NCBI GenBank assembly: GCA_030158725.1
Contig: JAOASJ010000031.1
Span: 6,504-70,503, forward strand
From: Bacteroidia bacterium
GTDB taxonomy: Bacteria > Bacteroidota > Bacteroidia > NS11-12g > UBA955
Direction: 5' to 3'
Length of the DNA stretch: 64,000 nucleotides
Under the pieces are notes generated by a model. It did not search any database, was not told where the DNA came from, and saw only the letters and a list, made by a program, of their open reading frames with translations. The position numbers and the translations under genes are program-made. Positions 11,640 through 27,137 of the stretch are shown piece by piece (position 1 is the first letter of the stretch; the number at the start of each line of letters is the position of its first letter).

Positions 11640-11678
11640 CTAATAAATAAGCGAATTATTGAATACAAAGTTAGGTAT

Positions 11679-14156
11679 TTACAAAGAATTACTTTTTAAA
11701 TGTTTGTTATTAAAATATTTGATTAGCTCCAATACAAGCAGCATAATACTTGCGCCTAAAATTGAAATAAGAAAGTGATAAGTGCCTGGGTTTTGAAAAC
11801 TAAATAGTATCTGTAAATATGGAATATTAAGCGTTAACAAAAGCATCAAAACTGCGCTAAATATTATGAATATTAAAGATTTGTTGTTCTCTTTTAAAAC
11901 AGAAAAAGCACTTCTGGTTTTAGAGAGATTACTTAATATTAAAAAGATATTTCCAATAATTAAAGCGGAAAAACTAATTGCCCTTGTCTCTAATTCTGAA
12001 TGTCCTTCGTTAATGGTAAACAAATAAACTGTCATAACAAATGCAAGCAATAATCCACCCTGAAAAATACTGCGCAGTATCTTATTGCGACCAAAAAAAG
12101 TGTCATCTAGATTTCTAGGCTTTCTCGTCATAATATCAGCTTCTTCCTTTTCAGATTCAAATGCAATGGAACAAACAGGATCAATAATTAATTCTAAAAA
12201 TACAATATGAACAGGAAGCAATATAATGGGTAGATTTTCGAAAAAAGCAGGAATCAATGACAATCCAATTATTGGTACATGTATGGCCATAATATATGTC
12301 ATAGCTTTTTGAAGGTTGTCATAGATTTTTCGCCCACCTCTGATAGCTGAAACTATAGAAGCAAAATTATCATCTAATAACACTATGGAGGCAGATTCTC
12401 TTGCAACATCCGTACCTCTTAATCCCATGGCAATTCCTATTTGAGCGGCCTTTAATGCTGGTGCATCGTTAACGCCATCTCCAGTCATTGCGACAATATG
12501 GCCTCGCTTCTTAAAAGCATTTACTATCCTAAGCTTTTGTTCAGGAATTACTCTAGCAAATATGCTTACCGTATCAATCACCTGGCTTAATTCATCATCA
12601 TTTAATTCCTTAAGTTCTTCACCAGTCATCATTATGCCATTTTCACTAAGGCCAATTTGATTGCCAATGCTTTTTGCAGTAACTGGAAAATCGCCCGTTA
12701 TCATTACAACCTTTATACCTGCGGTTTTACATTCTTCAAGTGCTGATTTTACTTCAGGTCTAATTGGATCTTCAAATCCTAAAAAACCAAGAAAATTAAA
12801 CTTGAAATCTGTTTGCTTTTCAGGAATTTCGTTGCTTTGCGTTGTTGAATTTGCAACACCAATAACTCTAAGTCCCGCTTCCGCCATTTTTACGATTTCC
12901 TCTTTTAGATTGTCAAGCACTTGGCCCTCAATTTTGCAAAGATTCAATATCGCTTCAGGAGATCCTTTACATGATATATTGAAGGTTTCAGATTCGCCTT
13001 TTGTTACCCGAGTCATAGCAAATAACTCTTTGCTTAATGGATATTCCTTTATTAATTTTTCTTTTTCATAATCAACTTTATACAATTTTGCATGGTTCAA
13101 AATGGCTTGCTCCATTGGATCTATTGGATTAATCTGAGATGCGAGAATGGCCGTATGACAAATAATAGCAACCTCATCACTTTTGGATTCAAAATCAGCT
13201 TTAGAATAAACGATGTCTTTTTGAAATACAGAAACCAACTCCATTTTATTTTGAGTTATAGTACCTGTTTTATCACTGCATAAAACACTGGTTGAACCAA
13301 GTGTTTCAATTGCATTGGCTTGCCTTGATAATACGTTTTTCTTAGATAGTCTCCAAGCGCCTAATGCTAAGAAAACGGTTAGAACAACAGGGAATTCTTC
13401 GGGTAATATTGCCATAGCTGAAGAAAGTCCACTTAACAGTGATTCTATAAAATTCCCTCGAGTTTGATAATATGCGATGACAACAATAACACTTATTAAA
13501 CCTCCAATAATGAAAAGCGTTTTTATCAGTCTTTTCATTTCAAGTTGCAAACGTGTTGCTTCAGGTTTAATATCTTGTAATGAACGGCCTATTTTCCCAA
13601 ATTCTGTGTTGACACCTGTAGCTATAACTTTGGCGTTTGCCTTGCCTTGAATAAGCAAACTTCCACTGTAAATTGGCATACCATTTTCTTTTAAAACAGG
13701 AACAGATTCTCCAGTTAATAGCGATTCGTCAATTGTTAAATGATTAGAATCAATAACAATTGCATCGGCAGAAATTCGATCTCCTTCATTTAGAATCATG
13801 ATGTCATCAATGACAATCTCTCTTGAGGGTACTCGTTTGGTTTTGCCATCCCTTAGCAACAATGTTCTTGGAGAGGATAGTTTTTTTAGAGAATCGAGTG
13901 CTTTTTCGGTTTTTTGACGTTGATAAAAGGTAATAAAAATAATTATGAATATACTAGAAAATAAGATGATACCTTCTCTGTAATCTCCGATAATAAGGTA
14001 TAAACTGCCACATGCCAATAAGAGCATGAACATAGGCTCTTTTATAACACTTAATGCAATTTCAAATACAGATTTTGTTTCTGAATTTGGTAATTCATTG
14101 TATCCACCTTTTTTTAGCTTTTGCTGAGCTTCAACATTCGTCAATCCGATTTCCAT
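11679..14156 (-). CDS. Cation-transporting P-type ATPase (P2-type, Ca2+/Mg2+-like).
   Basis: Phosphorylation motif DKTGTITQN, the TGES motif, MITGD and the hinge TGDGVNDAPALKAAQIGIAMG. 825 aa. Confidence 0.9.
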   Translation of the reverse strand: MEIGLTNVEAQQKLKKGGYNELPNSETKSVFEIALSVIKEPMFMLLLACGSLYLIIGDYREGIILFSSIFIIIFITFYQRQKTEKALDSLKKLSSPRTLLLRDGKTKRVPSREIVIDDIMILNEGDRISADAIVIDSNHLTIDESLLTGESVPVLKENGMPIYSGSLLIQGKANAKVIATGVNTEFGKIGRSLQDIKPEATRLQLEMKRLIKTLFIIGGLISVIVVIAYYQTRGNFIESLLSGLSSAMAILPEEFPVVLTVFLALGAWRLSKKNVLSRQANAIETLGSTSVLCSDKTGTITQNKMELVSVFQKDIVYSKADFESKSDEVAIICHTAILASQINPIDPMEQAILNHAKLYKVDYEKEKLIKEYPLSKELFAMTRVTKGESETFNISCKGSPEAILNLCKIEGQVLDNLKEEIVKMAEAGLRVIGVANSTTQSNEIPEKQTDFKFNFLGFLGFEDPIRPEVKSALEECKTAGIKVVMITGDFPVTAKSIGNQIGLSENGIMMTGEELKELNDDELSQVIDTVSIFARVIPEQKLRIVNAFKKRGHIVAMTGDGVNDAPALKAAQIGIAMGLRGTDVARESASIVLLDDNFASIVSAIRGGRKIYDNLQKAMTYIMAIHVPIIGLSLIPAFFENLPIILLPVHIVFLELIIDPVCSIAFESEKEEADIMTRKPRNLDDTFFGRNKILRSIFQGGLLLAFVMTVYLFTINEGHSELETRAISFSALIIGNIFLILSNLSKTRSAFSVLKENNKSLIFIIFSAVLMLLLTLNIPYLQILFSFQNPGTYHFLISILGASIMLLVLELIKYFNNKHLKSNSL

Positions 14157-14206
14157 AGTAAATACAAAGTTAAGCCACTTTTATCTACTTGGTATTTAAA
14201 TGTTTA

Positions 14207-16363
14207 TTAATAAAAATTCACCACACCAGTCTCAACATCATACAAGCCCCCAACAATTTTTATTTTTCCTATAGATTCTAATTCTGCGATTAATGGACTT
14301 TCTTTTTTAATTCTCTCAATAGTCAATAATACGTTTAATTCAGATACCTTATTTACAAAATCTAGATTTGAACCATTTCTATTAATGGTAAAACTTGTTT
14401 CACTGTCAATAGCGGGTTGTACCTTGTTTAATAAGCTTGTTAAATTCCCTAATTTCACATGGTTGCATGCACCTATTATTGCGCCACATTTAGTATGCCC
14501 AAGAACTACAATAAGCTTAACCCCGATTTCATGAATTCCAAACTCCATACTTCCTAGTATGTCTTCATTTAAGATGTTCCCTGCAATTCGGACGCTAAAA
14601 ATATCACCTAATCCAAGGTCAAAAATATGTTCGGTTGTGGTTCTAGAATCTATGCAACTCAATACAATTGCAAAAGGGTTCTGACCAAATGACGTTGCAT
14701 TGACTTGTTGTTTAAGATATTTTTCAGCCCAATTTCCCTTTACAAATCGATCATTTCCATTTTTTAAAATCTCTAAGATGTCTTCTGGTGACATTCTTTC
14801 TTGTGTCTGTTTGTCCAAAACATCTACAAATTCAATTCGATCTTCTGGATGATAAAGAGACTTAATACCTAAGACGTTTACTTTGATGTTTTTAAGTCCA
14901 CTTACAGTATTCTTGTAGTTGTTAATAATGTCCAATACATCTGGATCTATATAGTCTGAATATGTTGCATCAATTATAACTTTCGAGTCTTCTGGGATAT
15001 TCCATAACGTTTCTTGAATGCTCGCTTTGTTTAAAAATGAAACTTGGTTTGGGAGTTCAAGACGAATTGTTTCATCCAAATGTAAAGTTTCTTTTTTTAG
15101 TACAAATGGATTGTTAAAATTGCTTTTTAATAAATAGAAAATACTAATTCCCAAGCCTATAAGGACTCCTACTAATAAATCAGTAAAAACAATTGCTAAG
15201 ATGGTACATATAAAGGGAATAAATTGATTGTATCCTTTTGAATACATGTCTTTATACAGCTCTACTTTGGTCAGTTTGTAACCTGTTACCAATAGAATTG
15301 ATGCCAATGAAGCCAATGGAATTAGATTTAAAAATGGGCCAAGCAATAGTAAACTAAGCAACAAGAAAATCCCATGAAAAATACTAGATAATTTTGTTTT
15401 ACTACCAGCGTTGATGTTTACTGAACTTCGAACAATAACAGAGGTAATTGGAATCCCACCTATAAATCCTGCAAGCATATTTCCAGCGCCTTGAGCAAGT
15501 AACTCAACATTTGGTGATGCTAGTCGTTTTTCAGGGTCAATATTTTCAACTGCTTCTAAATTTAGTAAGGTTTCAAGTGATGCGACAATGGCAATGGTAA
15601 ATGCGATAATCCAAACATCGTGATTCCCAATTTCTGAAAATTTAGGTAATACCAGTAATTGTTGATACCCTTCAAGTTTAGGAATATTTACAAGATGGGA
15701 CTCGTGAATGTATAAATCAGGTATATAAAGTTTGAAAATCTGATTGAGAAATATGCCTAAAAAGACAACAAATAATGAGGCAGGTAATAGCTGTATGTTT
15801 TTTAATCTGGTCTTGTCCCAATATACCAAAGCAATTAATGATATTATAGAGACAATTATAGCTCCCCAAGAAAAATAATTGAAAATTTGAAGCAGTTCTG
15901 AAAAAGTATTTTCTCCGTCAGATTGAGAAAATGAAAAATCATCCTCCGGGTCTTTGTCATATCCTACAGCATGTGGAATTTGTTTCAAAATAAGAATGAC
16001 GCCAATAGCAGCCAAAAGTCCTTTAATTACATTTGAAGGTATGTAATTGGCAATAAAACCTCCTTTAAAGAGACCTAAAATAATTTGAAAGGCACCAGCC
16101 AAAACAACAGCGAGCAAAAAAGTTTCGAAACTGCCTAGTTTTAATATAGAACTTAACACTATCGCAGATAATCCTGCCGCAGGTCCACTTACACTTGTAT
16201 GAGATTGACTTAAAAAACCAACCACTATCCCTCCAATTATCCCCGAAATTATCCCTGAAAGGAGAGGTGCACCACTTGCTAATGCTACACCCAAACACAG
16301 TGGTAATGCAACAAGAAACACAACCAAACCAGCGGGTAAATCACTTTTAATTTTTTTAAACAT
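14207..16363 (-). CDS. SulP family anion transporter fused to a C-terminal beta-carbonic anhydrase.
   Basis: SulP TM core, then the beta-CA motifs SCIDSR (C-x-D-x-R) and GHTKCGA (H-x-x-C). 718 aa. Confidence 0.85.
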   Translation of the reverse strand: MFKKIKSDLPAGLVVFLVALPLCLGVALASGAPLLSGIISGIIGGIVVGFLSQSHTSVSGPAAGLSAIVLSSILKLGSFETFLLAVVLAGAFQIILGLFKGGFIANYIPSNVIKGLLAAIGVILILKQIPHAVGYDKDPEDDFSFSQSDGENTFSELLQIFNYFSWGAIIVSIISLIALVYWDKTRLKNIQLLPASLFVVFLGIFLNQIFKLYIPDLYIHESHLVNIPKLEGYQQLLVLPKFSEIGNHDVWIIAFTIAIVASLETLLNLEAVENIDPEKRLASPNVELLAQGAGNMLAGFIGGIPITSVIVRSSVNINAGSKTKLSSIFHGIFLLLSLLLLGPFLNLIPLASLASILLVTGYKLTKVELYKDMYSKGYNQFIPFICTILAIVFTDLLVGVLIGLGISIFYLLKSNFNNPFVLKKETLHLDETIRLELPNQVSFLNKASIQETLWNIPEDSKVIIDATYSDYIDPDVLDIINNYKNTVSGLKNIKVNVLGIKSLYHPEDRIEFVDVLDKQTQERMSPEDILEILKNGNDRFVKGNWAEKYLKQQVNATSFGQNPFAIVLSCIDSRTTTEHIFDLGLGDIFSVRIAGNILNEDILGSMEFGIHEIGVKLIVVLGHTKCGAIIGACNHVKLGNLTSLLNKVQPAIDSETSFTINRNGSNLDFVNKVSELNVLLTIERIKKESPLIAELESIGKIKIVGGLYDVETGVVNFY

Positions 16364-16452
16364 TTTATAAAATCGTTTGAATATATTAACTCAATAATAT
16401 CCCGCAATTTACGGAATCATTTGCCGCTTTAATATAGAAAATATCAATATTA

Positions 16453-16872
16453 TTAAGATGTTTTATTCTGACTTTCTTTCCGAAACAACAAAATAAAAGA
16501 CATTACAGATAATGCCAAGGTTATTGGTGTGAATATAATTTTCTCTAAATTACTTTCTGAAAATAAATTACCTATAGTATTAAATATGAAAAGATTTAAA
16601 AGTACTAAGTAGATAAATTTAGCCAAATTACTTGGACATTTTTTTCTAATCACCCCAAGCTCAGATAACACAAAAACAAGAATTAATGCGTTAACAGATA
16701 GTGAAATAGCTTCCATTTTTTGCATGTTTTCAATCGTTTTTATTTTTCCACCCCAAACGATAGAAAATGGAATTACACGAAACAATACCAAAACATGAAA
16801 AACAAAAACAAACAAAAAAGTAATCAAAAAAAGAATGAGTATATTTTTTTTATTCATGTTCAAGTATTTCAT
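16453..16872 (-). CDS. Hypothetical small integral membrane protein.
   Basis: 139 aa with 4 predicted TM helices. No recognisable motif. Confidence 0.35.
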   Translation of the reverse strand: MKYLNMNKKNILILFLITFLFVFVFHVLVLFRVIPFSIVWGGKIKTIENMQKMEAISLSVNALILVFVLSELGVIRKKCPSNLAKFIYLVLLNLFIFNTIGNLFSESNLEKIIFTPITLALSVMSFILLFRKESQNKTS

Positions 16873-16965
16873 TAAACAAAGTTAAGTTTTAGAATTTAAT
16901 TACGATAGATTTAAAATTTTAAATTAATTCAGTTGTTTTCGTTTAAAATTGCAACTTAAATATTT

Positions 16966-17493
16966 TTGATTCTGAATCTTGAGCAACTATATCAAACGCA
17001 TAAAAACTTGGTTTATAATCTTGCGCTAAACTATGTTCAAAATTCTGAAGATGCGGAAGAAATTACCCAAGATGTCTTTTTAACCGTGCACCAATCAATG
17101 TCCAGTTTCAAAGCCCAAGCAAATATTAAAACTTGGATTTACCGTATTACCATTAATAAATCATTGGATTTTTTAAAAGCCAAAAAACGTCAAAAAAGAT
17201 TTAGCAACTTAACTTCTTTGTTCTTTGATAATAGCTCTGAAATAAAACATCAAGAATCTGATTTTAAACATCCTGGAATTATTATGGAGGAAAAAGAAGC
17301 CTTCAAGAAATTGTTCGAAACCATTAATCAATTGCCCGATAATCAAAAGACTGTACTCATTTTATCGAAAATCGAGAATAAATCTCAGAAAGAAATAGCT
17401 GAAATTTTAAATCTCACAGTTAAAGCAGTTGAGTCTTTGTTTCAAAGAGCCAAAAAAAATATTGAAAAAAATTACCCCAACCCAAAGGATTAA
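16966..17493 (+). CDS. RNA polymerase ECF-type sigma-70 factor.
   Basis: Region 2 (LVYNLALNYVQNSEDAEEITQDVFL) and region 4 HTH (LPDNQKTVLILSKIENKSQKEIAEILNLTVKAVESL). The start is TTG as the ORF is drawn. Confidence 0.8.
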   Translation: MILNLEQLYQTHKNLVYNLALNYVQNSEDAEEITQDVFLTVHQSMSSFKAQANIKTWIYRITINKSLDFLKAKKRQKRFSNLTSLFFDNSSEIKHQESDFKHPGIIMEEKEAFKKLFETINQLPDNQKTVLILSKIENKSQKEIAEILNLTVKAVESLFQRAKKNIEKNYPNPKD

Positions 17494-17522
17494 TAAAATA
17501 ACATCGTCTAAATAATTATAAA

Positions 17523-17780
17523 ATGAAACCGTATCATCCAATAGATCGTTTAAGCCAAATTGAGAAAGTGGAAGCGCCAAACCATTTGTTTGAAAAAATA
17601 CAATCAAGAATTGGTAGTCAAAAAACAGAGAATTTTTCAATTGGTATGTCATACGCTATTGCCGCATCAATTGCTTTATTTCTTTGTCTAAACATTAGCC
17701 TTATTGTTTTCAAAGAAAATACGACAAACAAAATGAACTTATTCACCCAGTTGAATTCTAATAACGATCTATACAAATGA
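17523..17780 (+). CDS. Small single-pass membrane protein, a putative anti-sigma factor (CnrY-like in size and topology).
   Basis: 85 aa. Roughly 40 aa of cytoplasmic N-terminus, one TM (AIAASIALFLCLNISLIVF) and a short periplasmic tail. It sits 30 nt downstream of the ECF sigma and its stop overlaps the next gene's start (ATGA). Confidence 0.4.
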   Translation: MKPYHPIDRLSQIEKVEAPNHLFEKIQSRIGSQKTENFSIGMSYAIAASIALFLCLNISLIVFKENTTNKMNLFTQLNSNNDLYK

Positions 17781-18220
17781 ACAAAGTAAAATTACTAACT
17801 GTTGCAGCAATAATATTGCTTTTGTCTAATCTCATTTTAGTGGGTTTTATTTTGAAAAATAAACCTGGCAGGGGTGATGGTCCTAAAGATTATATTATTG
17901 AAAAATTAAATTTTGATGATAAACAAATTGAAGATTATAATGCGTTAATAGAAGCTCATAGATCAGAAATTAGGAAAAATGAAAAAGAAATTCATGCGCT
18001 AAAAAGTACTTTATATGCTGGTTTGAACACCATTAATCAATCGATGAAGGATTCTTTAATGAATCAAATAGCAGCAATTCAAGTTTGTATTGAAGATACC
18101 CATTGCAAACATTTTAAAGATATTCAAAGTTTATGTAAACCTGAACAAATTAAAGCGTTTGATGCTTTGTTGTTGGAAATGTCTGACCTGTTTTCTCCTA
18201 GAAAAAAGCCTAGAAGATAA
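17777..18220 (+). CDS. TM-anchored periplasmic helical protein, a putative periplasmic heavy-metal sensor (CnrX/CpxP-like fold).
   Basis: 147 aa. N-terminal anchor, then a helical domain with LTxxQ-like spacing and clustered His/Cys (EAHRSEI, EIHALK, CIEDTHCKHF). Translationally coupled to the upstream small TM protein. Confidence 0.4.
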   Translation: MNKVKLLTVAAIILLLSNLILVGFILKNKPGRGDGPKDYIIEKLNFDDKQIEDYNALIEAHRSEIRKNEKEIHALKSTLYAGLNTINQSMKDSLMNQIAAIQVCIEDTHCKHFKDIQSLCKPEQIKAFDALLLEMSDLFSPRKKPRR

Positions 18221-18221
18221 A

Positions 18222-18878
18222 ATGAATGTATTGTTTAGATTTATTTCTTTTATAAGTATTTTCATAATTAGTTATTCCTTTGCTACACCGCTTGCAGGTG
18301 TTAAAGTTGTTCTTATTCGTCCACATCAAGCTGATTCAATAAATATTGATGGTTTTAAATGTTACCTTTCTAATATTGTCATATCTGATTCAAACAAAAA
18401 GAAAGACTTAAGTCCAAGTAATTATCATTTATTGGATTTTACCAGTTCTGATACTGCAACACTGTATTTAAGTCCATTCGCTAATGCAAATTTACTTGAA
18501 TTTAATCTGGGACTTGATAGCGTAATCAATACATCTGGGGCTTTGGGAGGTCAATTAGATCCGAGCAACGGTATGTACTGGACTTGGCAAAGCGGCTACA
18601 TCAATTTTAAAATTGAAGGCACCTCTCCACATTGTTTAGCAAGAAACCACGAATTTCAATTTCACGCTGGAGGATATGCCTATCCATACAATGCCCTCAA
18701 TACAATCAATCTTGAACTTATACCCAACAAGGCATTTCATATTGAAATTGACCTAGCACTTTTTTTCAAATTGATTTCTATTCAGAATCTTAACCATGTA
18801 ATGTCGCCTGGTCCTAATGCCATAAAAATCTCCAAAGCCCTGGCATCATGTTTTAAAACAGTAATTGATGAAAAATAA
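18222..18878 (+). CDS. MbnP-like periplasmic copper-binding protein (partner of the MbnH-type peroxidase).
   Basis: Signal peptide. A 218-aa beta-rich protein with conserved Trp/His-bearing segments (GMYWTWQSGY, FQFHAGG). Its start is set at the ATG at 18222, not the track's 18090, to avoid overlapping the upstream gene. Its 3' end overlaps the start of the di-haem peroxidase gene. Confidence 0.45.
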   Translation: MNVLFRFISFISIFIISYSFATPLAGVKVVLIRPHQADSINIDGFKCYLSNIVISDSNKKKDLSPSNYHLLDFTSSDTATLYLSPFANANLLEFNLGLDSVINTSGALGGQLDPSNGMYWTWQSGYINFKIEGTSPHCLARNHEFQFHAGGYAYPYNALNTINLELIPNKAFHIEIDLALFFKLISIQNLNHVMSPGPNAIKISKALASCFKTVIDEK

Positions 18879-19875
18879 AATACTTCTTTTATTACTCTCG
18901 GTTGTTTTCTTGGCTCTCATTTCTATTGATAAACATGAGTCAAGTTTTCCAAAATATTTCCCAAAACCAGTTTATCAATTTGAACAGAATCAAAGCAATG
19001 ATTTGAAAATTGAATTGGGTCGTACTCTATTTTATGACCCCATACTTTCTTTAGATAATACAATTTCATGTGCTTCTTGTCACAATCCTTATAATGCTTT
19101 TGCGCACGTTGACCACAATCTAAGCCATGGTATAAATGACAAAATTGGTAAACGCAATGCGCCTGTATTGTTTAACTTGGCTTGGCATAAATCCTTTATG
19201 TGGGATGGGGCCATCAACCATCTGGATGTTCAAGCCCTTGCTCCAATTTCTCATCCTGATGAAATGGGGGAGACCATGTCAAATGTCTTGCTAAAGTTGA
19301 ATAGAAATCAAATCTACAAACAGCTTTTTTATCAAGCCTACGGTGACTCCCAAATAAACACTGAAAGAACACTTAAATCTATCTCTCAATTTTTATTAAG
19401 TTTAATCAGCTCAAATTCTAAATACGACAGCATGTTGCTTGGTAAAATCCAATTTAATACACAAGAACAAAATGGTTACCGCTTGTTTAAACTGCATTGT
19501 AATTTTTGCCATAAAGAGCCATTGTTCTCTGACTTTTCATTTAAAAATAACGGACTTTCTTTGGATACGAGTTTGAATGACTTTGGACGCTACAGTATTA
19601 GCTTGTTGCCAAATGATTCATTCAAATTCAAAGTGCCTACTTTGCGAAATGTTGAATTTTCTTATCCGTATATGCACGATGGGCGATTTAAAACATTAGC
19701 CCAAGTAATGAACCATTACAATTCAATAGATTTAAAAAATAAAAAAATCTCTACTGAACTACAAAGAAATTTAAATTTAAGCAGCAATGAGAAGGTTGAT
19801 ATTATTGCATTTTTAAGAACTTTAACTGACAAAAAGTTTCTTTTTAACCCCCAACACGCTTACCCTAAAAAATAA
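18865..19875 (+). CDS. Di-haem cytochrome c peroxidase family protein (MbnH/MauG-like).
   Basis: Two CxxCH haem motifs (CASCHNP and CNFCHKEP). CCP family hallmarks RNAPVLFN, WDGA/HDGR, PTLRN. 336 aa with a signal peptide. Confidence 0.8.
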   Translation: MMKNKILLLLLSVVFLALISIDKHESSFPKYFPKPVYQFEQNQSNDLKIELGRTLFYDPILSLDNTISCASCHNPYNAFAHVDHNLSHGINDKIGKRNAPVLFNLAWHKSFMWDGAINHLDVQALAPISHPDEMGETMSNVLLKLNRNQIYKQLFYQAYGDSQINTERTLKSISQFLLSLISSNSKYDSMLLGKIQFNTQEQNGYRLFKLHCNFCHKEPLFSDFSFKNNGLSLDTSLNDFGRYSISLLPNDSFKFKVPTLRNVEFSYPYMHDGRFKTLAQVMNHYNSIDLKNKKISTELQRNLNLSSNEKVDIIAFLRTLTDKKFLFNPQHAYPKK

Positions 19876-19925
19876 TAAATTTCTTGCAAAGGATTCAAGA
19901 AATTTAATCGTCTAACCAATAAAAC

Positions 19926-20786
19926 ATGAGAAAAATATATTTAAGTATAGCCATTGTTACTGTATCTCTATGCAATATAAATGGTCAAACAGTTCCCAAT
20001 TCTAGCTTCGAAACTTGGTCGCAAAATGGACCTTTTGAAACCCCAAACAATTGGAATGTTAGTCCTGCTGCTTCAAAATCAACCGATGCGCACACTGGCA
20101 CTTATTCCTTACAACTTAAAACCGGGATTTTTACCAACCCTCAAACCCAAGCAATTGATACAATACCTGGAATGGCAACAACTGGTCAACAAGGTATGGG
20201 ACCAGGCAATCAAGGAACAAACGGTTACTCTTTTGGGGCTAGACCGGATAGTCTGGTTTTTTGGTACAAATACCAAGCACAAAATAATGATTCGTTTGTT
20301 GTACGCCTTAATTTGACCAAATGGAATTCAGGGGTTAAGGACATGATTTCGGACCTGGTTTTTATAGGTGGAGCGACTATGAAATATACCAGAGTCGCAA
20401 TTGCATTACCTTATTTTTTAAATTCACAACCCGATACTGCAACCATACAGATAATTAGCAGTCTTAGTCCTAGAGAAAATTTAATTTTGGGTTCTACATT
20501 ATTGATTGACGATATTGGTTTTATTAGCAACAGCAGTGCGGTAGAACAAAACACAATTAACAATAATGTTCAGGTTTCAATTTACCCAAATCCGTTTAAC
20601 AATTCATTCACTATTGCCAATTTTAACAGTGACAATATCAAACTAATAGACATCTTTGGTGCTTTAGTTTTAGAACAAAACACGCGCAACATTGAAACTA
20701 TTGATATTTCAACATCTTCATTAGCTCCAGGTATCTACTTTATAGTATTGAATGATGGTGTTTACCACAAAATAATAAAAGAATAA
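19926..20786 (+). CDS. Secreted protein of unknown function with a T9SS type-A C-terminal sorting domain.
   Basis: Signal peptide. C-terminal roughly 80 aa match the Por_Secre_tail pattern (VSIYPNPFNNSFTI...APGIYFIVLNDG). The stop is directly adjacent to the multicopper oxidase start. Confidence 0.6.
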   Translation: MRKIYLSIAIVTVSLCNINGQTVPNSSFETWSQNGPFETPNNWNVSPAASKSTDAHTGTYSLQLKTGIFTNPQTQAIDTIPGMATTGQQGMGPGNQGTNGYSFGARPDSLVFWYKYQAQNNDSFVVRLNLTKWNSGVKDMISDLVFIGGATMKYTRVAIALPYFLNSQPDTATIQIISSLSPRENLILGSTLLIDDIGFISNSSAVEQNTINNNVQVSIYPNPFNNSFTIANFNSDNIKLIDIFGALVLEQNTRNIETIDISTSSLAPGIYFIVLNDGVYHKIIKE

Positions 20787-22517
20787 ATGAAAATAAAATC
20801 ACTTTTCACCTTAATAGCATTGATTGCATGGAAGTTGTCAAATGCCCAATACAACCAATTATGGATTCCTGATACTTTGACTGGGACAAATTTTAACTTG
20901 ACCATCAAAGATACTTTTGCCCAAATATGTAATACAGGGAATCAAACAATAACAGGTGGGATTAATGGGAAGTTTTGGGGACCTACTTTGTTCTTTAAAA
21001 AAGGAGAGGTGGTGCATTTAAATGTGAAGAATAATTTAAATGATTCAACAACCATACATTGGCATGGCATGCATTTACCTGCGGTGATGGATGGCGGTCC
21101 TCATCAAGTTATTCCTCCAGGAGCTCTTTGGCAACCATATTGGAAAGTTGCAAATAATGCGTCAACGTATTGGTACCACCCACATTTACACGAAATGACC
21201 ATGGAGCATATAAGCAAGGGTATTGGTGGATTGATTATCGTAAGAGATAGCATTGAATCGTCTTTGAGTTTACCAAGGACTTATGGACTAGATGATATTC
21301 CAATGGTTTTGACCGACAGAGATATTAATTCTTCCAATCAATTTGATTTGGTGCCTTATGGCGACAGTTGTTTGGTAAACATGACTCTTAGAGCACAATA
21401 TACAGTGCCAACTCAGGTCGTACGCTTTCGTTTGTTAAATGCCGCTATTGAGCGTTCATTTAACATTGGTTTTAGCGACAATAGAACTTTTTATGTTATT
21501 GGTTCTGATGGAGGCTTGTTAAATGCTCCAGTTCCTCTAACCCGTTACTTATTGCATGCAGGTGAAAGAATTGAAATATTGGTAGACTTCAAAGGTCAAT
21601 CAACATCAATCGACATTAAAGCATTTAATTCAACCCTCGGAAATGCAATTCCGGGTGGCGAGAATTTCCCAAATGGTCCTTTTGCAAATGCTTTGGGAAA
21701 GAAAGACTTTGTCATGCTGCATTTGAATTTTAAATCGGCGACCAACAATGCAATTACTAGTATTCCTACTGTTTTAACCAATAATATACTTTTGAAATCA
21801 GCAGATGCTCAAATAACAAGAGCTCTAACAATGACAGATAGTGCGGGTGTTCCAGGAACTTTGGGCCCAAATACCTTTATAATTAACCACAGATTATTTA
21901 AACTAAACTATATTGATTACCAAGTGCCATTAAACAATACAGAAATTTGGCAGATCACAAATTCCACTGCTTTTGGGCACCCATTCCATATCCATGACGT
22001 TGAATTTAATATTATCAGTGTAAATGGAGCCGCACCATCAGCAGCTCAAGCTGGCTGGAAAGATGTGGTTTTTGTGCCTGGCGCAAGTGGAGGAGGACCA
22101 GGTGGTGGAGGTACGCCTTACGTAATTAAATTTATTGCAAAATTTGATGATTATGCAGACGCCCTTCATCCATTTATGTACCACTGTCACATTTCGTTGC
22201 ATGAAGATGAAGGAATGATGGGACAGTTTGTAGTAACTGATCCATCAAATAAAATTAACACCAATGAGAATCTTACATCATTTTCATTGTTTCCAAATCC
22301 AGCAAACCAAACACTTTATTTCAAGTTTAATAACAGCAATCAAAATGTTTATTATGTGAGAATAGTTGATGCCTTAGGTAGAACAATTATGATGTTGCCT
22401 GCCCCAGAATTAAATAAGGGCATTGATATTTCACAATTAATTCCAGGTGTTTATTCAGTTATACTTACAGATGGAGATTCAAAAAAAGTAAGCATTCAAA
22501 ATTTCGTTAAGGAGTAA
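20787..22517 (+). CDS. Multicopper oxidase (laccase/CueO-like) with a T9SS type-A C-terminal domain.
   Basis: Copper-binding motifs HWHGMH, HPHLH, HPFHIHD and HCHISLHEDEGMMGQF. C-terminal FSLFPNPANQTLYF...PGVYSVILTDG. 576 aa. Confidence 0.85.
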   Translation: MKIKSLFTLIALIAWKLSNAQYNQLWIPDTLTGTNFNLTIKDTFAQICNTGNQTITGGINGKFWGPTLFFKKGEVVHLNVKNNLNDSTTIHWHGMHLPAVMDGGPHQVIPPGALWQPYWKVANNASTYWYHPHLHEMTMEHISKGIGGLIIVRDSIESSLSLPRTYGLDDIPMVLTDRDINSSNQFDLVPYGDSCLVNMTLRAQYTVPTQVVRFRLLNAAIERSFNIGFSDNRTFYVIGSDGGLLNAPVPLTRYLLHAGERIEILVDFKGQSTSIDIKAFNSTLGNAIPGGENFPNGPFANALGKKDFVMLHLNFKSATNNAITSIPTVLTNNILLKSADAQITRALTMTDSAGVPGTLGPNTFIINHRLFKLNYIDYQVPLNNTEIWQITNSTAFGHPFHIHDVEFNIISVNGAAPSAAQAGWKDVVFVPGASGGGPGGGGTPYVIKFIAKFDDYADALHPFMYHCHISLHEDEGMMGQFVVTDPSNKINTNENLTSFSLFPNPANQTLYFKFNNSNQNVYYVRIVDALGRTIMMLPAPELNKGIDISQLIPGVYSVILTDGDSKKVSIQNFVKE

Positions 22518-22576
22518 TAACATATCTCATCCCAAAATAAAATCATTTTCTTTCAAACCCATATTTAAAATAATTA

Positions 22577-23926
22577 ATGAAAATCTCTAGCCTTTTAATC
22601 GCACTTGTTTTTACAACACTTGCAAATGCACAAACCAATCCGATAATTACCTCATGGTTGCAGAATACCACTGGAATTCTTGGTAGACATTATGTAAATG
22701 GAAATTCTACTCCAATTAACGATGCCGATACCGCCAATGTTATGTCGGTTTCATATTCGAGTAATTGGGTTTACATCAGAACCAACGGTGTGCCTTCTTA
22801 TATTACAGGTCCATTTTTAGATGGCAATCCTTCAATCACCACTGCTCAAAAAGCCATTTTTAAATTGAGTTTAAACCCTGCAAAAAATACAGGCACATTA
22901 ACGAATACTACAGGTGGAAATATTGGATTGTTTATAAATGGTGTTGCTTTGTTTGACTACCGAGACGGTGTTTCTTGGAGCAATGCAAACAACGCTTTAA
23001 AAGGTGGTCCTTTGGGAGGAATGGGCGATAATGTTTGGAACCGTGATGCGGTTGTGGCTGAAAGAAAGGGTTTCGATTGCGCGAAAGGCCATCCTGCAAT
23101 GGGCAATTACCACCACCATCAAAATCCTAGTGCTTTTAATCTTGATCAGAATGTGGTTTCAACCATTTGTAACTTATACAATGCTGATGGATTATATGTT
23201 ATAGATTCAACAAAACATTCGCCACTTATTGGTTTTTCTTACGATGGATTTCCAATCTACGGCGCTTATGCATATAAAAATGCGGATGGAACAGGTGGAA
23301 TTGTTCGCATGAAATCTGCTTACAAATACAGAAATATCACAACAAGAACTACTTATTCTAACGGAAGTAATGTAACTGCAGGTCCTGTTGTTTCAAGCAC
23401 ATATCCACTTGGTTACTTTAGAGAAGATTATGAATTTGTGGCAGGAACGGGTGATGATATACTTGATGTTCACAATGGCCGTTTTTGCGTTACCCCTGAA
23501 TACCCGAATGGTATATATTGTTATTTTGCAACTGTTGACGCTAATTGGAATTCTGCATATCCCTATGCTGTTGGTCCAACTTTCTATGGGGTTAAAAATG
23601 CTGTAAAAGTTACTGCGATTAGTGAGCCAGTCACAATTTATAAGTCCAATAATACCGGTGTTGAATCTTTCATTCAAGAGATGAATATTAGCATTTACCC
23701 GAACCCTACGAGCGATTTATTGGCAGTTCAATGCAATGAAATCAACCGCGAGAACATCAATGTTGAATTGTACGATTTTACTGGCAAATTGGTTCAGTCT
23801 TGTGTTTTATTACAAGGCAGTACCATCGCGTATTTCGATACCCAAACATTGTATGCGGGTCAATATATAGTGAAAATTAATACCACTTCAAAGGTATATA
23901 CCCGTAACATAAGCATTGTTAAATAA
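22577..23926 (+). CDS. YHYH family protein with a T9SS type-A C-terminal domain.
   Basis: Signature GHPAMGNYHHHQNP and a YDGFPIYG segment. C-terminal ISIYPNPTSDLLAV...AGQYIVKINT sorting domain. 449 aa. Confidence 0.7.
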   Translation: MKISSLLIALVFTTLANAQTNPIITSWLQNTTGILGRHYVNGNSTPINDADTANVMSVSYSSNWVYIRTNGVPSYITGPFLDGNPSITTAQKAIFKLSLNPAKNTGTLTNTTGGNIGLFINGVALFDYRDGVSWSNANNALKGGPLGGMGDNVWNRDAVVAERKGFDCAKGHPAMGNYHHHQNPSAFNLDQNVVSTICNLYNADGLYVIDSTKHSPLIGFSYDGFPIYGAYAYKNADGTGGIVRMKSAYKYRNITTRTTYSNGSNVTAGPVVSSTYPLGYFREDYEFVAGTGDDILDVHNGRFCVTPEYPNGIYCYFATVDANWNSAYPYAVGPTFYGVKNAVKVTAISEPVTIYKSNNTGVESFIQEMNISIYPNPTSDLLAVQCNEINRENINVELYDFTGKLVQSCVLLQGSTIAYFDTQTLYAGQYIVKINTTSKVYTRNISIVK

Positions 23927-23932
23927 TGTGAT

Positions 23933-24532
23933 ATGTTAAAATTATCATCACGTTTTTCATTATTGCTTATAACCACTTTAGTCTTCGGTTTTATCAATGA
24001 GACGCCTCAATCCATCAATGATTTTACACTCAAAAACATTGATGGAAAAATGGTTTCACTAAGCAATTATAAAGAGGCTAGGGGTTTTATTATTGTATTT
24101 ACTTGCAACCATTGTCCATTCGCAAAACTATATCCTGAGCGCTTTAACCAATTGAATTTAAAGTACAAGCCATTGGGTGTCCCATTGCTCGCAATAAGTT
24201 CAACGGATACAATACTATATATCGAAGACACTTATTCAAAAATGGTAAAAAAAGCAAAAAAGGAAAAGTTTAATTTCCCCTACCTATTTGATGGAGAGCA
24301 AACAGTAGCTAAGAATTTTTCTGCACAAAAAACACCTCATGCTTATGTGGTTTGGAAAGAAAATAATAAATGGGTTGTTAAATACGATGGGGCAATAGAT
24401 GATAATGGCAACAATCCTGAAAAGGTCAGCAAACACTTTGTTGCTGATGCGGTAGATTCATTGCTGTTGAATAAGTCAGTGGCAATCCGACAAACTAAAT
24501 CAATTGGTTGTCAAATTCTATTTAGAAAATAG
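23933..24532 (+). CDS. Thioredoxin-fold (redoxin/AhpC-TSA-like) thiol-disulfide oxidoreductase.
   Basis: Signal/anchor sequence. CxxC motif in FIIVFTCNHCPFAKLY. 199 aa. It is the last gene of the same-strand run. Confidence 0.6.
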   Translation: MLKLSSRFSLLLITTLVFGFINETPQSINDFTLKNIDGKMVSLSNYKEARGFIIVFTCNHCPFAKLYPERFNQLNLKYKPLGVPLLAISSTDTILYIEDTYSKMVKKAKKEKFNFPYLFDGEQTVAKNFSAQKTPHAYVVWKENNKWVVKYDGAIDDNGNNPEKVSKHFVADAVDSLLLNKSVAIRQTKSIGCQILFRK

Positions 24533-24570
24533 AATTTGACTCGACTTTGTTTGTCTAATTTTTTTAAAAA

Positions 24571-24602
24571 AATGTAAAGGAGTGATTTTACATTCCTTTT
24601 TT
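24571..24602. terminator. Rho-independent terminator, bidirectional, between convergent genes.
   Basis: Perfect hairpin aatgtaaa-ggagtga-tttacatt followed by a T-run (cctttttt) and preceded by an A-run. Confidence 0.6.
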
Positions 24603-24701
24603 AAATAATTTTCAGATGTAATATTCACCCTTCAAAGGTGGCAATATTTAGATTTGAACCCCTTACATTTTAAATCTTAAAGTTGTATAACTTACTGATA
24701 A

Positions 24702-27137
24702 TTAAGTCTTGTTTTGATGCTGAACCAATGGTAAAGTGATAATAAATTCAGTGCCTTCATTAGGTTTGCTCACTGCATTAATTTCTCCACCCATGCTTTC
24801 TAATTGTGCTTTAACCATATACAATCCAATCCCATTGCCTTCAGAATTATTGTTAAACCGCTTATATAGACCAAACAACTGAGAACCATATTTGTCCATA
24901 TCAATTCCAATTCCGTTGTCTTTAAAATGAAGTATAACTTGTTCGCTTTTAATCTCAGACCAAATGTCCAATCTTGCAACTTGACCTGCTTTTGCATATT
25001 TTATACTATTGCTAATCAAGTTGTAAAAAACACTGTTCAAATAAGTTCTAATCGACCCAATATTTCCACATTTTGAAAAATCATCACTGATTTGAATTTT
25101 ACTGCTCTCTATTTGTTTACTTAAAATGTTTTTAACATCGCCTAACAAGTCTTTGAATTCAACAAACTCATTCAACTCAGATACATCTTTTTTGACTTTT
25201 AATATTTCATTTAAGTCAACTATAACCGTTTCTAATCGCTCAGTTGATATATCAATTTTTTCTAAAATTTCTTCTTTTTCAATTGGGTCATTTGACTCTT
25301 TTAACAAGGAATTTAAAGCAACAATATTAGCGACTGGTGCCCTTAAATTATGGGAAACTATAAAGGCAAATTGCTCTAAATCTTTGTTCCTTCTTAACAA
25401 AACGGAGTTGGTATTTAACAAGGTGTTTTCCATTTCTTTTCGTTTGCTAATATTTTGAGCTGCAATACAATAACCAATTATTTCATTTTTATTTAATACT
25501 GGAATAGCCGTAATTTCAAAGTAGTCTAATTTTGTTTCATTTAAATAGGTCGTTTCATAAGCAAATGATTTCTTTTCATTTGTGATTTTTTCAAATACCC
25601 AATTGAAATTTACTTTTTTGTCAGGATGTAATAATTCAAGGAAACTTAGGCCTGTCTGAATTTGAAATCCTGTTAAAATATTGTATTCCTTTAACATGAT
25701 TTTATTGTAAGACTGGATTATGAAATTCACATCCATCAAAAAATAGCCTATTTCTGTATTCTCAAAAATAGAATTCATATTGGCCTCAGATTTTGTTAAA
25801 AGTTTATAAGCATCTTCTTTCTTAAAATACGTTTCCAACATTTCAGCTATAGTATTAAGCAAGAATATTTCTTCTTCTAAAAACAAATAATTCTGAGAGG
25901 ATTCATTTTGCGGTGGATAAACCACTTCTATGAATGAATCAGCATATTCCTTACAATTAATTTCGGACCTTATTTTATTTAAACTTGCATTAAATCCAAT
26001 TGATTGATACAAGTCTGAACCACATTTAATTCGAGCTTCACAATCAACATCAAACTGGAATGCATACGGAATTAAGTTGACTATACTATTTAATAAAGTA
26101 TCCTTATCGTGGTTATCGTTTAAAAGCAATTTGTTTACTTGATGTAAAACATCCAGCTCTTTAATACGCATGCTCAATAATTTGCTGTTTTGTTCTTTCT
26201 TAATCTTGATGCGTATGTTTTTAACCGCCGTAGACAAATTCTTCGCAATGGTCTCTAATACTTTTACCTCTTGTTCATCAAATGAATCGACACTGTCTGA
26301 ATATATGTTGATATTTCCTGTTACATGTTTATGGTAATTTAAAGCAATCGATACACAACCTTTTAATCCGTATTCATCTGCTTTGTCCTGCCAAAACGCG
26401 AAGTTTTCTATTAGTTTAAAATTATTTGCTATTGTAGTAAGTCCTGTATTGAGAACATTAGCTGTAGGACCGTTGCCTTGAATTTTGTCTGCTAAATTTA
26501 TTTTAATGTCTTTGGTATAGCCAGTTTTTCCATATTCTGCAGCAATTTTTAAATTTTGATCTTTTGCATCAAATTCTGGTTTTACACCTATCCAAACCAA
26601 TTTATAATTTCCAAATTCCACCAAATATTTACAGACTTCTTGTGTCAAATTCAATTCATCATGAATGTTGTAAATTAATTCACTTACTTGGTTAATTAAC
26701 TTCAATTCAGATATTCCTCGAGTTAACTTATGGTTTATCTCAACCTTCTCTGTTATATCGGTTAAAATTCCATTCCAAATTATATCTCCATTTTCTTGTT
26801 TCTTTGGGATAGAATTGAAATGTAAATATTGAGACTCTCCATTGCCGTTTTTTCCTCTAACTTCAATATCGAATATGCTTAAGTTTTGATAGGATTCGTA
26901 TTCGGCTTTGCGAAAACGTTCAATATCATCAGGGTCAATTAATCCTCTTAGAATTTCTTGGTCATTGTATAATTCGTTCAAACTACATCCCGAATATTCC
27001 TCTATGTTTTTGCTTAAATAGGTAAACTTCCCAATTCCAGAAACAAACATAGTATATTGGTAAATTATAACTCCTGGGATATTGCTGCTAAGCGCTTCTA
27101 GGAAATTACTGTTTAAATCGGTTTTTTCTTCATTCAT
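24702..27137 (-). CDS. Cytoplasmic multi-PAS/GAF sensor histidine kinase.
   Basis: HisKA H-box (FAFIVSHNLRAPVANI). HATPase_c N/G boxes (YNLISNSIKYA, DNGIGID, GNGIGLYMVK). 811 aa. No N-terminal TM segment and no adjacent response regulator. Confidence 0.85.
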   Translation of the reverse strand: MNEEKTDLNSNFLEALSSNIPGVIIYQYTMFVSGIGKFTYLSKNIEEYSGCSLNELYNDQEILRGLIDPDDIERFRKAEYESYQNLSIFDIEVRGKNGNGESQYLHFNSIPKKQENGDIIWNGILTDITEKVEINHKLTRGISELKLINQVSELIYNIHDELNLTQEVCKYLVEFGNYKLVWIGVKPEFDAKDQNLKIAAEYGKTGYTKDIKINLADKIQGNGPTANVLNTGLTTIANNFKLIENFAFWQDKADEYGLKGCVSIALNYHKHVTGNINIYSDSVDSFDEQEVKVLETIAKNLSTAVKNIRIKIKKEQNSKLLSMRIKELDVLHQVNKLLLNDNHDKDTLLNSIVNLIPYAFQFDVDCEARIKCGSDLYQSIGFNASLNKIRSEINCKEYADSFIEVVYPPQNESSQNYLFLEEEIFLLNTIAEMLETYFKKEDAYKLLTKSEANMNSIFENTEIGYFLMDVNFIIQSYNKIMLKEYNILTGFQIQTGLSFLELLHPDKKVNFNWVFEKITNEKKSFAYETTYLNETKLDYFEITAIPVLNKNEIIGYCIAAQNISKRKEMENTLLNTNSVLLRRNKDLEQFAFIVSHNLRAPVANIVALNSLLKESNDPIEKEEILEKIDISTERLETVIVDLNEILKVKKDVSELNEFVEFKDLLGDVKNILSKQIESSKIQISDDFSKCGNIGSIRTYLNSVFYNLISNSIKYAKAGQVARLDIWSEIKSEQVILHFKDNGIGIDMDKYGSQLFGLYKRFNNNSEGNGIGLYMVKAQLESMGGEINAVSKPNEGTEFIITLPLVQHQNKT

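Follow-up and report, generated by a model that had tools for sequence, protein, structure and literature searches.

Association of MbnP- and MbnH-like genes with a type IX-exported YHYH protein and a putative metal-sensing sigma factor module in Bacteroidota

The window analysed here is a stretch of 64,000 nucleotides (64 kb) from a Bacteroidia bacterium (GenBank assembly GCA_030158725.1, contig JAOASJ010000031.1, positions 6,504 to 70,503 of the forward strand). Nine open reading frames (ORFs), all on the + strand, fill positions 16966-24532 (Table 1). They encode an extracytoplasmic function (ECF) sigma factor (g1), two membrane-anchored proteins (g2 and g3), an MbnP-like protein (g4), an MbnH-like di-haem enzyme (g5), three proteins with sorting domains of the type IX secretion system (T9SS), which are a small cargo protein (g6), a multicopper oxidase (g7) and a YHYH-domain protein (g8), and a CxxC redoxin (g9). 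A first-pass annotation, made from the letters alone, had described these genes as one operon that joins a periplasmic copper pair to proteins delivered to the cell surface. All nine ORFs lie where it had placed them, and profile searches against Pfam and NCBIfam agree with each of its protein-family assignments. The comparison with related loci gives a different picture of the whole. The cluster is a modular array with a core of MbnP, MbnH and YHYH genes, a regulatory triad (g1, g2, g3) in about half of the loci, and an optional block of g6, oxidase, sulfatase and redoxin genes. We regard as secure, with little room left for doubt, the make-up of the cluster, its conserved core and the layout with two promoters that are described below.

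Table 1. Genes and sequence features of the cluster, with positions in the window.
Feature	Position	Strand	Basis or remark
g1 ECF-type sigma factor, 175 aa, TTG start	16966..17493	+	Pfam/NCBIfam; exact start uncertain
P1 promoter-like motif CAAAGGATT-N11-ATCGTCTAA	17483..17511	+	12 nt before g2 ATG
g2 single-pass membrane protein, putative anti-sigma factor, 85 aa	17523..17780	+	hydrophobic segment, conserved position
g3 membrane-anchored periplasmic helical protein, putative metal sensor, 147 aa	17777..18220	+	Spy/CpxP/CnrX (LTXXQ/Metal_resist) superfamily
g4 MbnP-family periplasmic protein, 218 aa	18222..18878	+	PF20243, AF2/Foldseek, WxW W120-T-W122
g5 MauG-type di-haem enzyme, MbnH-like, 336 aa	18865..19875	+	CCP_MauG, haem motifs, Y285
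AU-rich stem-loop at g5 stop	19876..19906	+	dG -8 kcal/mol, z -3.86
P2 promoter-like motif CAAAGGATT-N11-ATCGTCTAA	19887..19915	+	11 nt before g6 ATG
g6 small T9SS cargo, PCMD-like (jelly-roll) N-domain	19926..20786	+	Por_Secre_tail; lineage-restricted accessory
g7 three-domain multicopper oxidase, T9SS type-A C-terminal domain	20787..22517	+	Pfam, copper motifs
g8 YHYH-domain protein, T9SS type-A C-terminal domain	22577..23926	+	PF14240, Por_Secre_tail
g9 exported thioredoxin-fold CxxC redoxin, TlpA/ResA/AhpC-TSA type	23933..24532	+	AhpC-TSA, Redoxin, CNHC58
Terminator-like hairpin + short T run, cluster end	24576..24602	+	dG -9.4 kcal/mol, z -2.09

The genes are closely spaced. A gap of 29 nt separates g1 from g2, one nucleotide less than first annotated, and the remaining junctions are as described at that time: g2 and g3 overlap in ATGA, g3 and g4 lie 1 nt apart, g4 and g5 overlap by 14 nt (11 nt if g5 starts at the ATG at 18868), and the gaps that follow measure 50 nt (g5-g6), 0 nt (g6-g7), 59 nt (g7-g8) and 6 nt (g8-g9). 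The ATG of g4 at 18222 is nested in a longer ORF with a TTG start (18090) and agrees with the N-termini of 32 homologues. A 'clean terminator' had been reported at 24571. The structure there is an AT-rich hairpin of 9 bp at 24576-24599 with a short T run behind it (z -2.1), and a consensus terminator scan of the window made no call at the cluster end. The stem-loop straight after the stop codon of the mbnH-like g5 is of about the same strength, and one in 200 shuffled sequences folds equally well; it is possibly a partial terminator or a processing site. A search of 16300-24800 against Rfam gave no match, and a scan of the window for the sigma-70 consensus was uninformative (38 sites, 38 expected).

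The MbnP and MbnH assignments are supported by profile, fold and motif. The ORF at 18222-18878, for which the first-pass annotation had allowed that a profile search might find no relationship to MbnP, matches the MbnP family PF20243 (E 6.6e-36; 124.4 bits against a cut-off of 27). The AlphaFold2 (AF2) model of g4 has a pLDDT of 87, and a Foldseek search with this model returns six chains of the MbnP structure 7L6G (E 3.5e-8 to 1.2e-7, prob 1.0, TMq 0.57-0.62). These chains are the sole PDB matches at E<=0.001, the next match having an E of 0.018. Five residues, M118, W120, W122, H148 and M194, are invariant in 33 sequences and include both tryptophans of the WxW motif. The first Trp of this motif in MbnP is converted to kynurenine, giving a Cu(I) site (PMC11951088). 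The neighbouring enzyme g5 matches CCP_MauG (E 2.4e-52). Its haem motifs CASCH69 and CNFCH212 are invariant in 121 of 121 homologues, and the inter-haem W113 is kept in 113 of them. Y285, likewise invariant in all 121, falls in the alignment at the position of the MbnH Tyr (6E1C), where the peroxidases 3O5C and 1IQC have their Met ligand; His-Tyr as opposed to His-Met ligation separates MauG-type from canonical enzymes (PMC11892367). The best NCBIfam model for g5 is TIGR04039, the MbnH family, ahead of MauG (173 bits). The cluster thus carries members of the MbnP and MauG-type families by Pfam, fold and motif, though not at the level of the NCBI equivalog models.

The closest known system is the MbnP/MbnH pair of methanobactin operons (Methylosinus trichosporium OB3b; 7L6G, 6E1C) together with orphan MbnPH pairs. 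To our knowledge these proteins have so far been understood only in methanotrophs, where their biological role is still open. Shared with the window are a WxW protein of the MbnP fold next to a His-Tyr di-haem enzyme and, by expectation, the same Trp-to-kynurenine chemistry that makes a Cu(I) site. There are also differences: g4 is only 13-15% identical to 7L6G and shorter (218 against ~290 aa), and unlike methanobactin operons the cluster has no methanobactin gene and no MbnT TonB transporter. Its third partner is a T9SS-exported YHYH protein, and control would lie with a CnrYXH-like ECF module instead of MbnI/MbnR. Another parallel is offered by MopE/CorA with CorB/MCA2590, in which a di-haem peroxidase gene is likewise paired with that of a surface copper-binding protein and the copper site is kynurenine-dependent, as expected here. 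MopE/CorA has a different fold and no sequence relation to YHYH; in the window the kynurenine candidate, the MbnP-like protein, is periplasmic, and the surface protein is encoded by a separate gene and exported by the T9SS.

Conservation of the cluster was followed in two censuses in which the window proteins, with T9SS tails cut from the queries, were searched against all ORFs of each locus. The first was anchored on MbnP, with one genome per species, and covered the best 80 of at least 594 genomes with an MbnP-like relative. The reverse census was anchored on YHYH and covered the best 80 of at least 558 matches in metagenome contigs. If Bacteroidota are taken broadly, so as to count in Ignavibacteria and Kapaibacteria, they account for all of these best 80 MbnP loci, and the proposed restriction of the system to T9SS-bearing Bacteroidota is supported in this wide sense. 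An MbnH gene directly follows MbnP in 76 of 76 MbnP-anchored loci with room for it. YHYH lies on the same strand within 9 kb in 38 of the 41 loci that extend at least 6 kb to each side. The sigma gene is found upstream in 30 of 66 loci and g3 in 36 of 75, and the other parts are rarer still (multicopper oxidase 8/41, redoxin 9/41, g6 1/41). In the reverse direction, MbnP and MbnH accompany YHYH on the same strand in 42 of 53 loci, or 19 of 24 where at least 5 kb is available on both sides; the oxidase accompanies it in 7 of 80 and g6 in none of the 80. Independent gene calls with precomputed Pfam labels agree with these counts.

The first-pass annotation had suggested a census of MbnP and MbnH beside both a T9SS multicopper oxidase and a YHYH protein. 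The association with YHYH is borne out, that with the oxidase holds in a minority of loci, and the pairing of MbnP-MbnH with YHYH, which is the most robust association of all, had not been singled out. Nor are the nine genes one conserved unit, as had been supposed: the seven recognisable families (sigma factor, g3, MbnP, MbnH, oxidase, YHYH, redoxin) are found together in only 4 of the 48 loci that are long enough. The oxidase and redoxin genes make up an accessory pair that many loci do without. The order of the core genes is kept from Chitinophagales to Kapaibacteria, with median gaps of -4 nt between MbnP and MbnH and 58 nt between MbnH and YHYH. A 3.3-Mb Kapaibacterium contig carries, in this order, genes for a sigma factor, an 86-aa ORF, a Metal_resist protein, MbnP, MbnH, one further ORF and YHYH. 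Unsupervised clustering of neighbouring ORFs recovered the families of the cluster itself and one family of T9SS-tailed sulfatases (7 loci); among the related loci so clustered, no TonB-dependent receptor, CopCD-type importer or efflux pump recurs. The closest relatives of the window (L001 and L081, 90% identity) have eight of the genes and lack g6, and locus L003 has all nine together with a sulfatase gene.

Two loci, L165 (362-12281) and L166, show a rearranged version with MbnP, MbnH, YHYH, a g6-like gene, a T9SS oxidase and a second, longer YHYH gene (517 aa). They have no sigma triad, and the place it usually takes is occupied by genes of sulfur and thiol redox metabolism, for an MBL-rhodanese, a glyoxalase, a YgaP-like protein and two thioredoxin/rhodanese proteins.

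The YHYH protein g8 is the most conserved member of the cluster. It matches PF14240 over the full length of the domain (E 5.9e-58; 196 bits against a cut-off of 25) and ends in a Por_Secre_tail domain (E 1.2e-12). Across 94 loci outside the close clade the median identity to the window protein is 69.7%, higher than that of the oxidase (65.7), redoxin (64), MbnH (56.7), sigma factor (56.2), MbnP (41.5), g3 (39.4) or g2 (33.5). YHYH proteins form a large family, with 2,149 clusters (50% identity, E<=0.001), and we know of no function or structure for it. Eukaryotes and jumbo phages have been reported to carry the domain as well. In 43 diverse representatives D167, H172, Y178, H179, H181, H214, D223, E283, D284, D297, N300 and R302 are invariant or nearly so, and g8 keeps the conserved His/Asp set. 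The domain stands N-terminal to Ig, fn3, SprB, Calx-beta and cohesin/dockerin modules and to T9SS tails in its relatives, an architecture that marks it as a putative displayed head domain. What sets g8 and its orthologues apart from the wider family is their identity of about 70% across orders, the T9SS tail, and the linkage to MbnP/MbnH and to an ECF-type promoter motif. Sequence and profile searches of the PDB with YHYH matched T9SS tails only and no solved structure of the domain, and the AF2 model had a mean pLDDT of 42, from an alignment of 27 sequences of ~70% identity. The single functional statement found for the domain comes from a paper that calls it 'enigmatic' and, on the strength of three His and one Asp, predicts a Zn-dependent hydrolase (PMC7824862).

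YHYH genes are also found in other settings. A tblastn search of plasmids with YHYH gave three contexts only and is anecdotal. On a Chondrinema litorale plasmid (L163, NZ_CP111058, 4098-7702) YHYH follows genes for a sigma factor, a 105-aa ORF and an LTXXQ-like protein and precedes those for a 214-aa ORF and a TlpA-like redoxin, without MbnP, MbnH or the CGTCTAA motif described below. The association of YHYH with sensor and redoxin therefore exists independently of MbnPH. On a plasmid of Deinococcus sp. KNUC1210 (L162, NZ_CP092194, 5779-7855) a HupE/UreJ_2 membrane protein, of a metal permease family, is encoded 5 nt after YHYH, a hint that YHYH handles a metal. At least two YHYH paralogues stand in tandem in L025, L027, L028, L043, L122 and L165, some of them without a recognisable T9SS tail.

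The first three genes form what appears to be a regulatory triad similar to CnrH/CnrY/CnrX. g1 is an ECF sigma factor (Sigma70_r2 E 1e-17, Sigma70_r4_2 E 1.2e-15; TIGR02937 102 bits against a cut-off of 42.9). It has no ATG start; the TTG at 16966 is plausible but uncertain. g2 has one hydrophobic segment (residues 45-63, KD 2.51) and no family above threshold in the Pfam search (best DUF3379, E 6.5e-4). Its slot between the sigma gene and g3 is kept in at least 25 loci, and it is a putative anti-sigma factor. In g3 the transmembrane segment is N-terminal (residues 8-26). Orthologues of g3 from related loci match Metal_resist (PF13801) in 21 of 35 cases (best 9e-12) and LTXXQ in 11 of 35, and a profile of the family finds Spy (1.8e-5), NccX (0.0039) and CnrX (0.018) in the PDB. 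Spy is the best of these matches, and that to NccX runs over the full length, transmembrane segment included. These matches lend support to the earlier suggestion of a sigma factor, anti-sigma factor and sensor. H61 and H112 are present in at least 90% of the g3 family, and E106, H109 and C120 are the majority residues at their positions; the ligand pattern of CnrX is not reproduced.

The start of g1 deserves a further remark. The TTG at 16966 coincides with the final three bases of a TAnnTTTG box (16961-16968), and many relatives have a TTG or GTG start two codons downstream, at a position occupied by CTG in the window. With 99 occurrences against 110 expected, the window shows no enrichment of TAnnTTTG, and searches for a shared motif 5' of the sigma gene (dyad enumeration, AAC-N-CGT, TAnnTTTG) yielded nothing convincing.

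The 9-mer ATCGTCTAA has three copies in the window. Two of them lie in the g1-g2 and g5-g6 gaps, close before the start codons, and both are preceded by CAAAGGATT. Together the two halves form a bipartite ECF-type motif, CGAAGGA-N15-CGTCTAA, for which 70 distinct sites give the consensus gCGAAGGA(t/a)t-N13-atCGTCTAA. Expressed as [CA][GA]A[AG]GG, 14-17 nt and CGTCTA, it has exactly two matches in the window, at 17483 and 19887, both on the + strand, against a mean of 0.13 in shuffled sequences. In 1.95 Mb of related loci it occurs 76 times on the strand of the cluster and not once on the opposite strand, and 74 of the 76 sites fall at two fixed positions: between the sigma gene and the genes for the anti-sigma factor and g3 (31 sites), and just 3' of the mbnH stop codon, before YHYH, the oxidase or g6 (about 42 sites). 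It was found upstream of the sigma gene in none of 52 loci, nor is it there in the window. The motif before YHYH is commoner in loci with the triad (21/65) than in those without (3/35; Fisher p 0.0076), and it likewise precedes YHYH in a Kapaibacterium genome.

Because the promoter-like motif occurs twice within the cluster, the nine genes are probably not one transcript. The internal motif, which the first-pass annotation had missed, would divide the cluster into two sigma-dependent units, with P1 serving the genes for the anti-sigma factor, sensor, MbnP and MbnH, and P2 those for g6, oxidase, YHYH and redoxin. Position and co-occurrence suggest that the motif is bound by the g1 sigma factor. 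YHYH would then belong to the sigma regulon, and P1 would provide feedback on the anti-sigma factor, with the sigma gene itself expressed from elsewhere. P2 stands immediately before YHYH in most relatives, whereas the lineage of the window has g6 and the oxidase gene inserted between the two and so recruited into the YHYH unit. Complete genomes can be scanned with the motif for the remaining members of the regulon.

The -35 half of P1 coincides with the last codons and stop of g1 (17483-17493, CCA AAG GAT TAA), so that neither the end of the sigma factor nor the promoter of the anti-sigma gene can change freely without affecting the other. The two motif sites at other positions (L117:1386-1414 and L045:5991-6016) may mark further members of the regulon.

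CnrYXH and NccYXH of Cupriavidus, which respond to nickel and cobalt, offer the nearest model for such a module. In common with them the window has an ECF sigma factor. Its anti-sigma candidate is likewise very small and spans the membrane once, its putative sensor is a periplasmic four-helix protein with a membrane anchor, assigned to the Metal_resist/LTXXQ superfamily, and both the anti-sigma gene and the effector genes would be preceded by promoters that depend on the sigma factor. The module would work like CnrYXH, but gene order, ligand pattern and effectors differ. The order is sigma factor, anti-sigma factor, sensor instead of anti-sigma factor, sensor, sigma factor, and the sigma gene, unlike that of CnrYXH, would lie outside the autoregulated unit. 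The conserved residues are H61, E106-x2-H109-x2-H112 and a Cys, and the effectors are binding and oxidase proteins instead of an RND efflux pump.

The T9SS sorting domain (TIGR04183/PF18962) is well supported in all three cargo proteins (g6 46.9, g7 37.1 and g8 42.7 bits against a cut-off of 23), and in each of them the signal peptide is followed by a predicted mature protein that begins with Gln. Outside its Por_Secre_tail (E 2.7e-14) g6 has only a faint match to PCMD (E 0.65), and three of the 29 proteins of its family carry PF13201. It keeps company with the oxidase gene and is missing from 158 of the 160 census loci, occurring in the window lineage and L003; a 43%-identical homologue is present in L165/L166, directly 5' of the T9SS multicopper oxidase in L165. 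g7 consists of Cu-oxidase_3, Cu-oxidase_2, Cu-oxidase and Por_Secre_tail domains, and its copper motifs are complete (HWH91, HPH131, HPFHIH398, HCHISLHEDEGM466). The redoxin g9 (AhpC-TSA E 2.2e-16, Redoxin E 1.4e-10) goes with the oxidase, being present in 8 of 10 oxidase loci and 2 of 70 others. A full set of T1/T2/T3 sites and an adjoining CxxC redoxin recall the copper context of CueO/PcoA oxidases and Scs/TlpA redoxins. g7 differs in its T9SS type-A tail, from which action at the cell surface is expected, in having no Met-rich insert, and in its score with the CueO model (349 bits, below the cut-off of 525); the oxidase-redoxin pair is moreover optional here, being found in about 10-20% of loci.

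The recurrent T9SS-tailed sulfatase-family gene has no copy in the window. It is found in L003 (14297-15871), L008, L023, L025, L027, L055 and L065 and in 7 YHYH-anchored loci (for example L116:1159-2745), 14 loci overall, and mostly lies between the oxidase and YHYH genes. The L003 protein matches Sulfatase (E 5e-38) and has the active-site motif C-S-S-T-R in place of C/S-x-P-x-R.

The reading we favour is that of an ECF-sigma-controlled envelope copper-handling module that responds to copper excess or stress; for the whole chain we put the probability at roughly 0.45. The periplasmic sensor would detect a metal, most likely copper, and the sigma factor would be released. MbnH, as a His-Tyr di-haem enzyme, would use H2O2 to oxidise W120 in the WxW motif of MbnP to kynurenine, creating a high-affinity Cu(I) site, and MbnP would buffer or relay periplasmic Cu(I). 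Its constant partner would be the His/Asp-rich YHYH metalloprotein, which transits the periplasm before the T9SS delivers it to the cell surface. In loci that have it, the multicopper oxidase displayed there may oxidise Cu(I) or other substrates, and the CxxC redoxin may keep envelope thiols or cargo cysteines in order. The outcome would be sequestration and oxidation without a transporter, rather than acquisition. A part in copper acquisition or detoxification is deduced from family membership, and the sequence itself favours neither of the two. We lean to copper excess or stress because known CnrX/Spy-type modules answer metal or envelope stress, because the anti-sigma factor would be under feedback, and because no importer or efflux pump recurs in the 160 loci.

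Several points weigh against this reading. The assignment to copper depends on the family membership of MbnP and on an oxidase present in a minority of loci. g4 scores 24.5 bits with the equivalog model TIGR04052, below its cut-off of 140, by a local match of residues 88-151 that spans WxW and H148, and g5 scores 205.1 bits with TIGR04039 against 362.85. PDB sequence and profile searches with g4 do not reach 7L6G and leave the invariant H148, M118 and M194 as putative copper ligands. Taken alone, the g3 of the window matches LTXXQ at E 0.0038, below the Pfam cut-off. The sigma factor is tied to the motif by position and co-occurrence only. The core can do without the sigma factor, since the triad is missing from about half of the loci, and most of these have no motif either. 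As for YHYH, others have predicted a Zn hydrolase (PMC7824862), its relatives are fused to display and adhesion modules of which none is copper-specific, and the HupE/UreJ-type permease beside it in Deinococcus is not copper-specific either. Finally, the 160 loci of the two censuses are the best-scoring ones and hence biased towards relatives of the window.

A different role within copper biology would be supply. MbnP matured by MbnH would then be a periplasmic Cu(I) chaperone that loads T9SS cargo before its folded export, the cargo being YHYH always and the oxidase when present, and the sigma module would match cargo production to the copper available. The tight linkage of MbnP/MbnH and YHYH in both census directions would suit such a role, but about one fifth of close YHYH orthologues have no MbnPH nearby. 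YHYH does look like the head of an enzyme, with its high conservation, family-wide set of His, Asp and Tyr and place in front of stalk and anchor modules, though as a copper protein it would be hypothetical. The oxidase needs four coppers and likewise exits through the T9SS, and the copper-acquisition regulons of methanotrophs include MbnPH and MopE/CorA (PMC3621798). In the loci studied here, in contrast, no copper importer recurs, and sensors of the CnrX/Spy type are known from excess and stress responses. We consider copper supply unlikely on balance.

A related proposal, which we likewise advance with more doubt than conviction, concerns YHYH itself. It may represent a new kind of copper protein outside the cytoplasm, or else be another substrate of the MauG-type enzyme, and would in either case rely on MbnP/MbnH for its metallation or cofactor maturation in the periplasm. 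If so, the cluster would represent a dedicated metallochaperone and maturation route for T9SS cargo with its own ECF switch, and would provide the first function for a domain of more than 2,000 sequence clusters.

The metal need not be copper at all. The MauG-type enzyme could install a protein-derived cofactor on the MbnP-like protein, on YHYH or on both for another job, such as binding of Zn, Ni or Fe or hydrolysis or oxidation of extracellular polymers, with the oxidase as an unrelated laccase-type add-on. Such a job would accord with the prediction for YHYH of a Zn-dependent hydrolase (PMC7824862), its HupE/UreJ_2 neighbour in Deinococcus, its fusions to dockerin, cohesin, fn3 and Ig modules, the T9SS sulfatase-family gene recurring in 14 loci, the divergence of Bacteroidota MbnP and MbnH from the NCBI equivalog models, and the Chondrinema plasmid on which sigma factor, LTXXQ-like, YHYH and TlpA genes stand without MbnPH. 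Yet the residue types of the copper site (first Trp of WxW, His, Met) are invariant in g4, whose fold matches MbnP only, and the accessory genes, where present, encode two classic proteins of copper contexts, a TlpA-like redoxin and a multicopper oxidase with all four sites. These points make a role unconnected with copper improbable in our view. That the genes are mere neighbours, regulated independently on one strand and without a common function, might be read from the hairpin after mbnH, the gaps of 50 and 59 nt, the variable accessory genes and the want of a shared motif 5' of the sigma gene, but is very hard to reconcile with a bipartite motif confined in 160 loci to the same two positions, one before each unit, with core synteny from Chitinophagales to Kapaibacteria, and with the recurrence of only the cluster's own families among the neighbours.

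Returning to the favoured copper-handling module, its wider interest lies in a divergent MbnP/MbnH branch in at least ~600 species-level genomes of Bacteroidota, with a third partner that is constant, a dedicated ECF module of metal-sensor type and a recognisable promoter. The searchable literature yielded no account of a link between MbnP, MbnH and YHYH, though the neighbourhood analysis of Manesis et al. 2021 may mention Bacteroidota contexts. New are the constant YHYH partner, the delivery of partners by the T9SS, the promoter motif and the breadth of at least ~600 species. The linkage of YHYH to MbnP, MbnH and a sigma factor is the first functional context for this 'enigmatic' domain. It makes testable the role of kynurenine-copper proteins outside methanotrophy, the function of YHYH and the metallation of T9SS-exported cuproproteins, and cultivable carriers include Parasediminibacterium sp. 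JCM 36343 and Chitinophagaceae bacterium IBVUCB1. A literature match to a MauG-like protein of Flavobacterium proved to be a partner of PhoX and is unrelated.

The cluster is flanked upstream by a divergent 139-aa membrane ORF and downstream by a convergent gene (24702-27137) for a PAS-GAF histidine kinase. Further upstream, on the - strand at 10539-16363, lie genes for a VIT1-family transporter, a P2-type cation ATPase and a SulP permease fused to a beta-carbonic anhydrase. These were considered as parts of the module and rejected: they are on the opposite strand, are not of copper type and do not recur in related loci. Elsewhere in the window a 544-aa GldJ-like protein with an FGE-sulfatase domain (61746-63380, - strand) and a 1704-aa PKD protein with a CHU_C type-B T9SS signal (35562-40676, + strand) are encoded, which is consistent with a gliding, T9SS-bearing organism.

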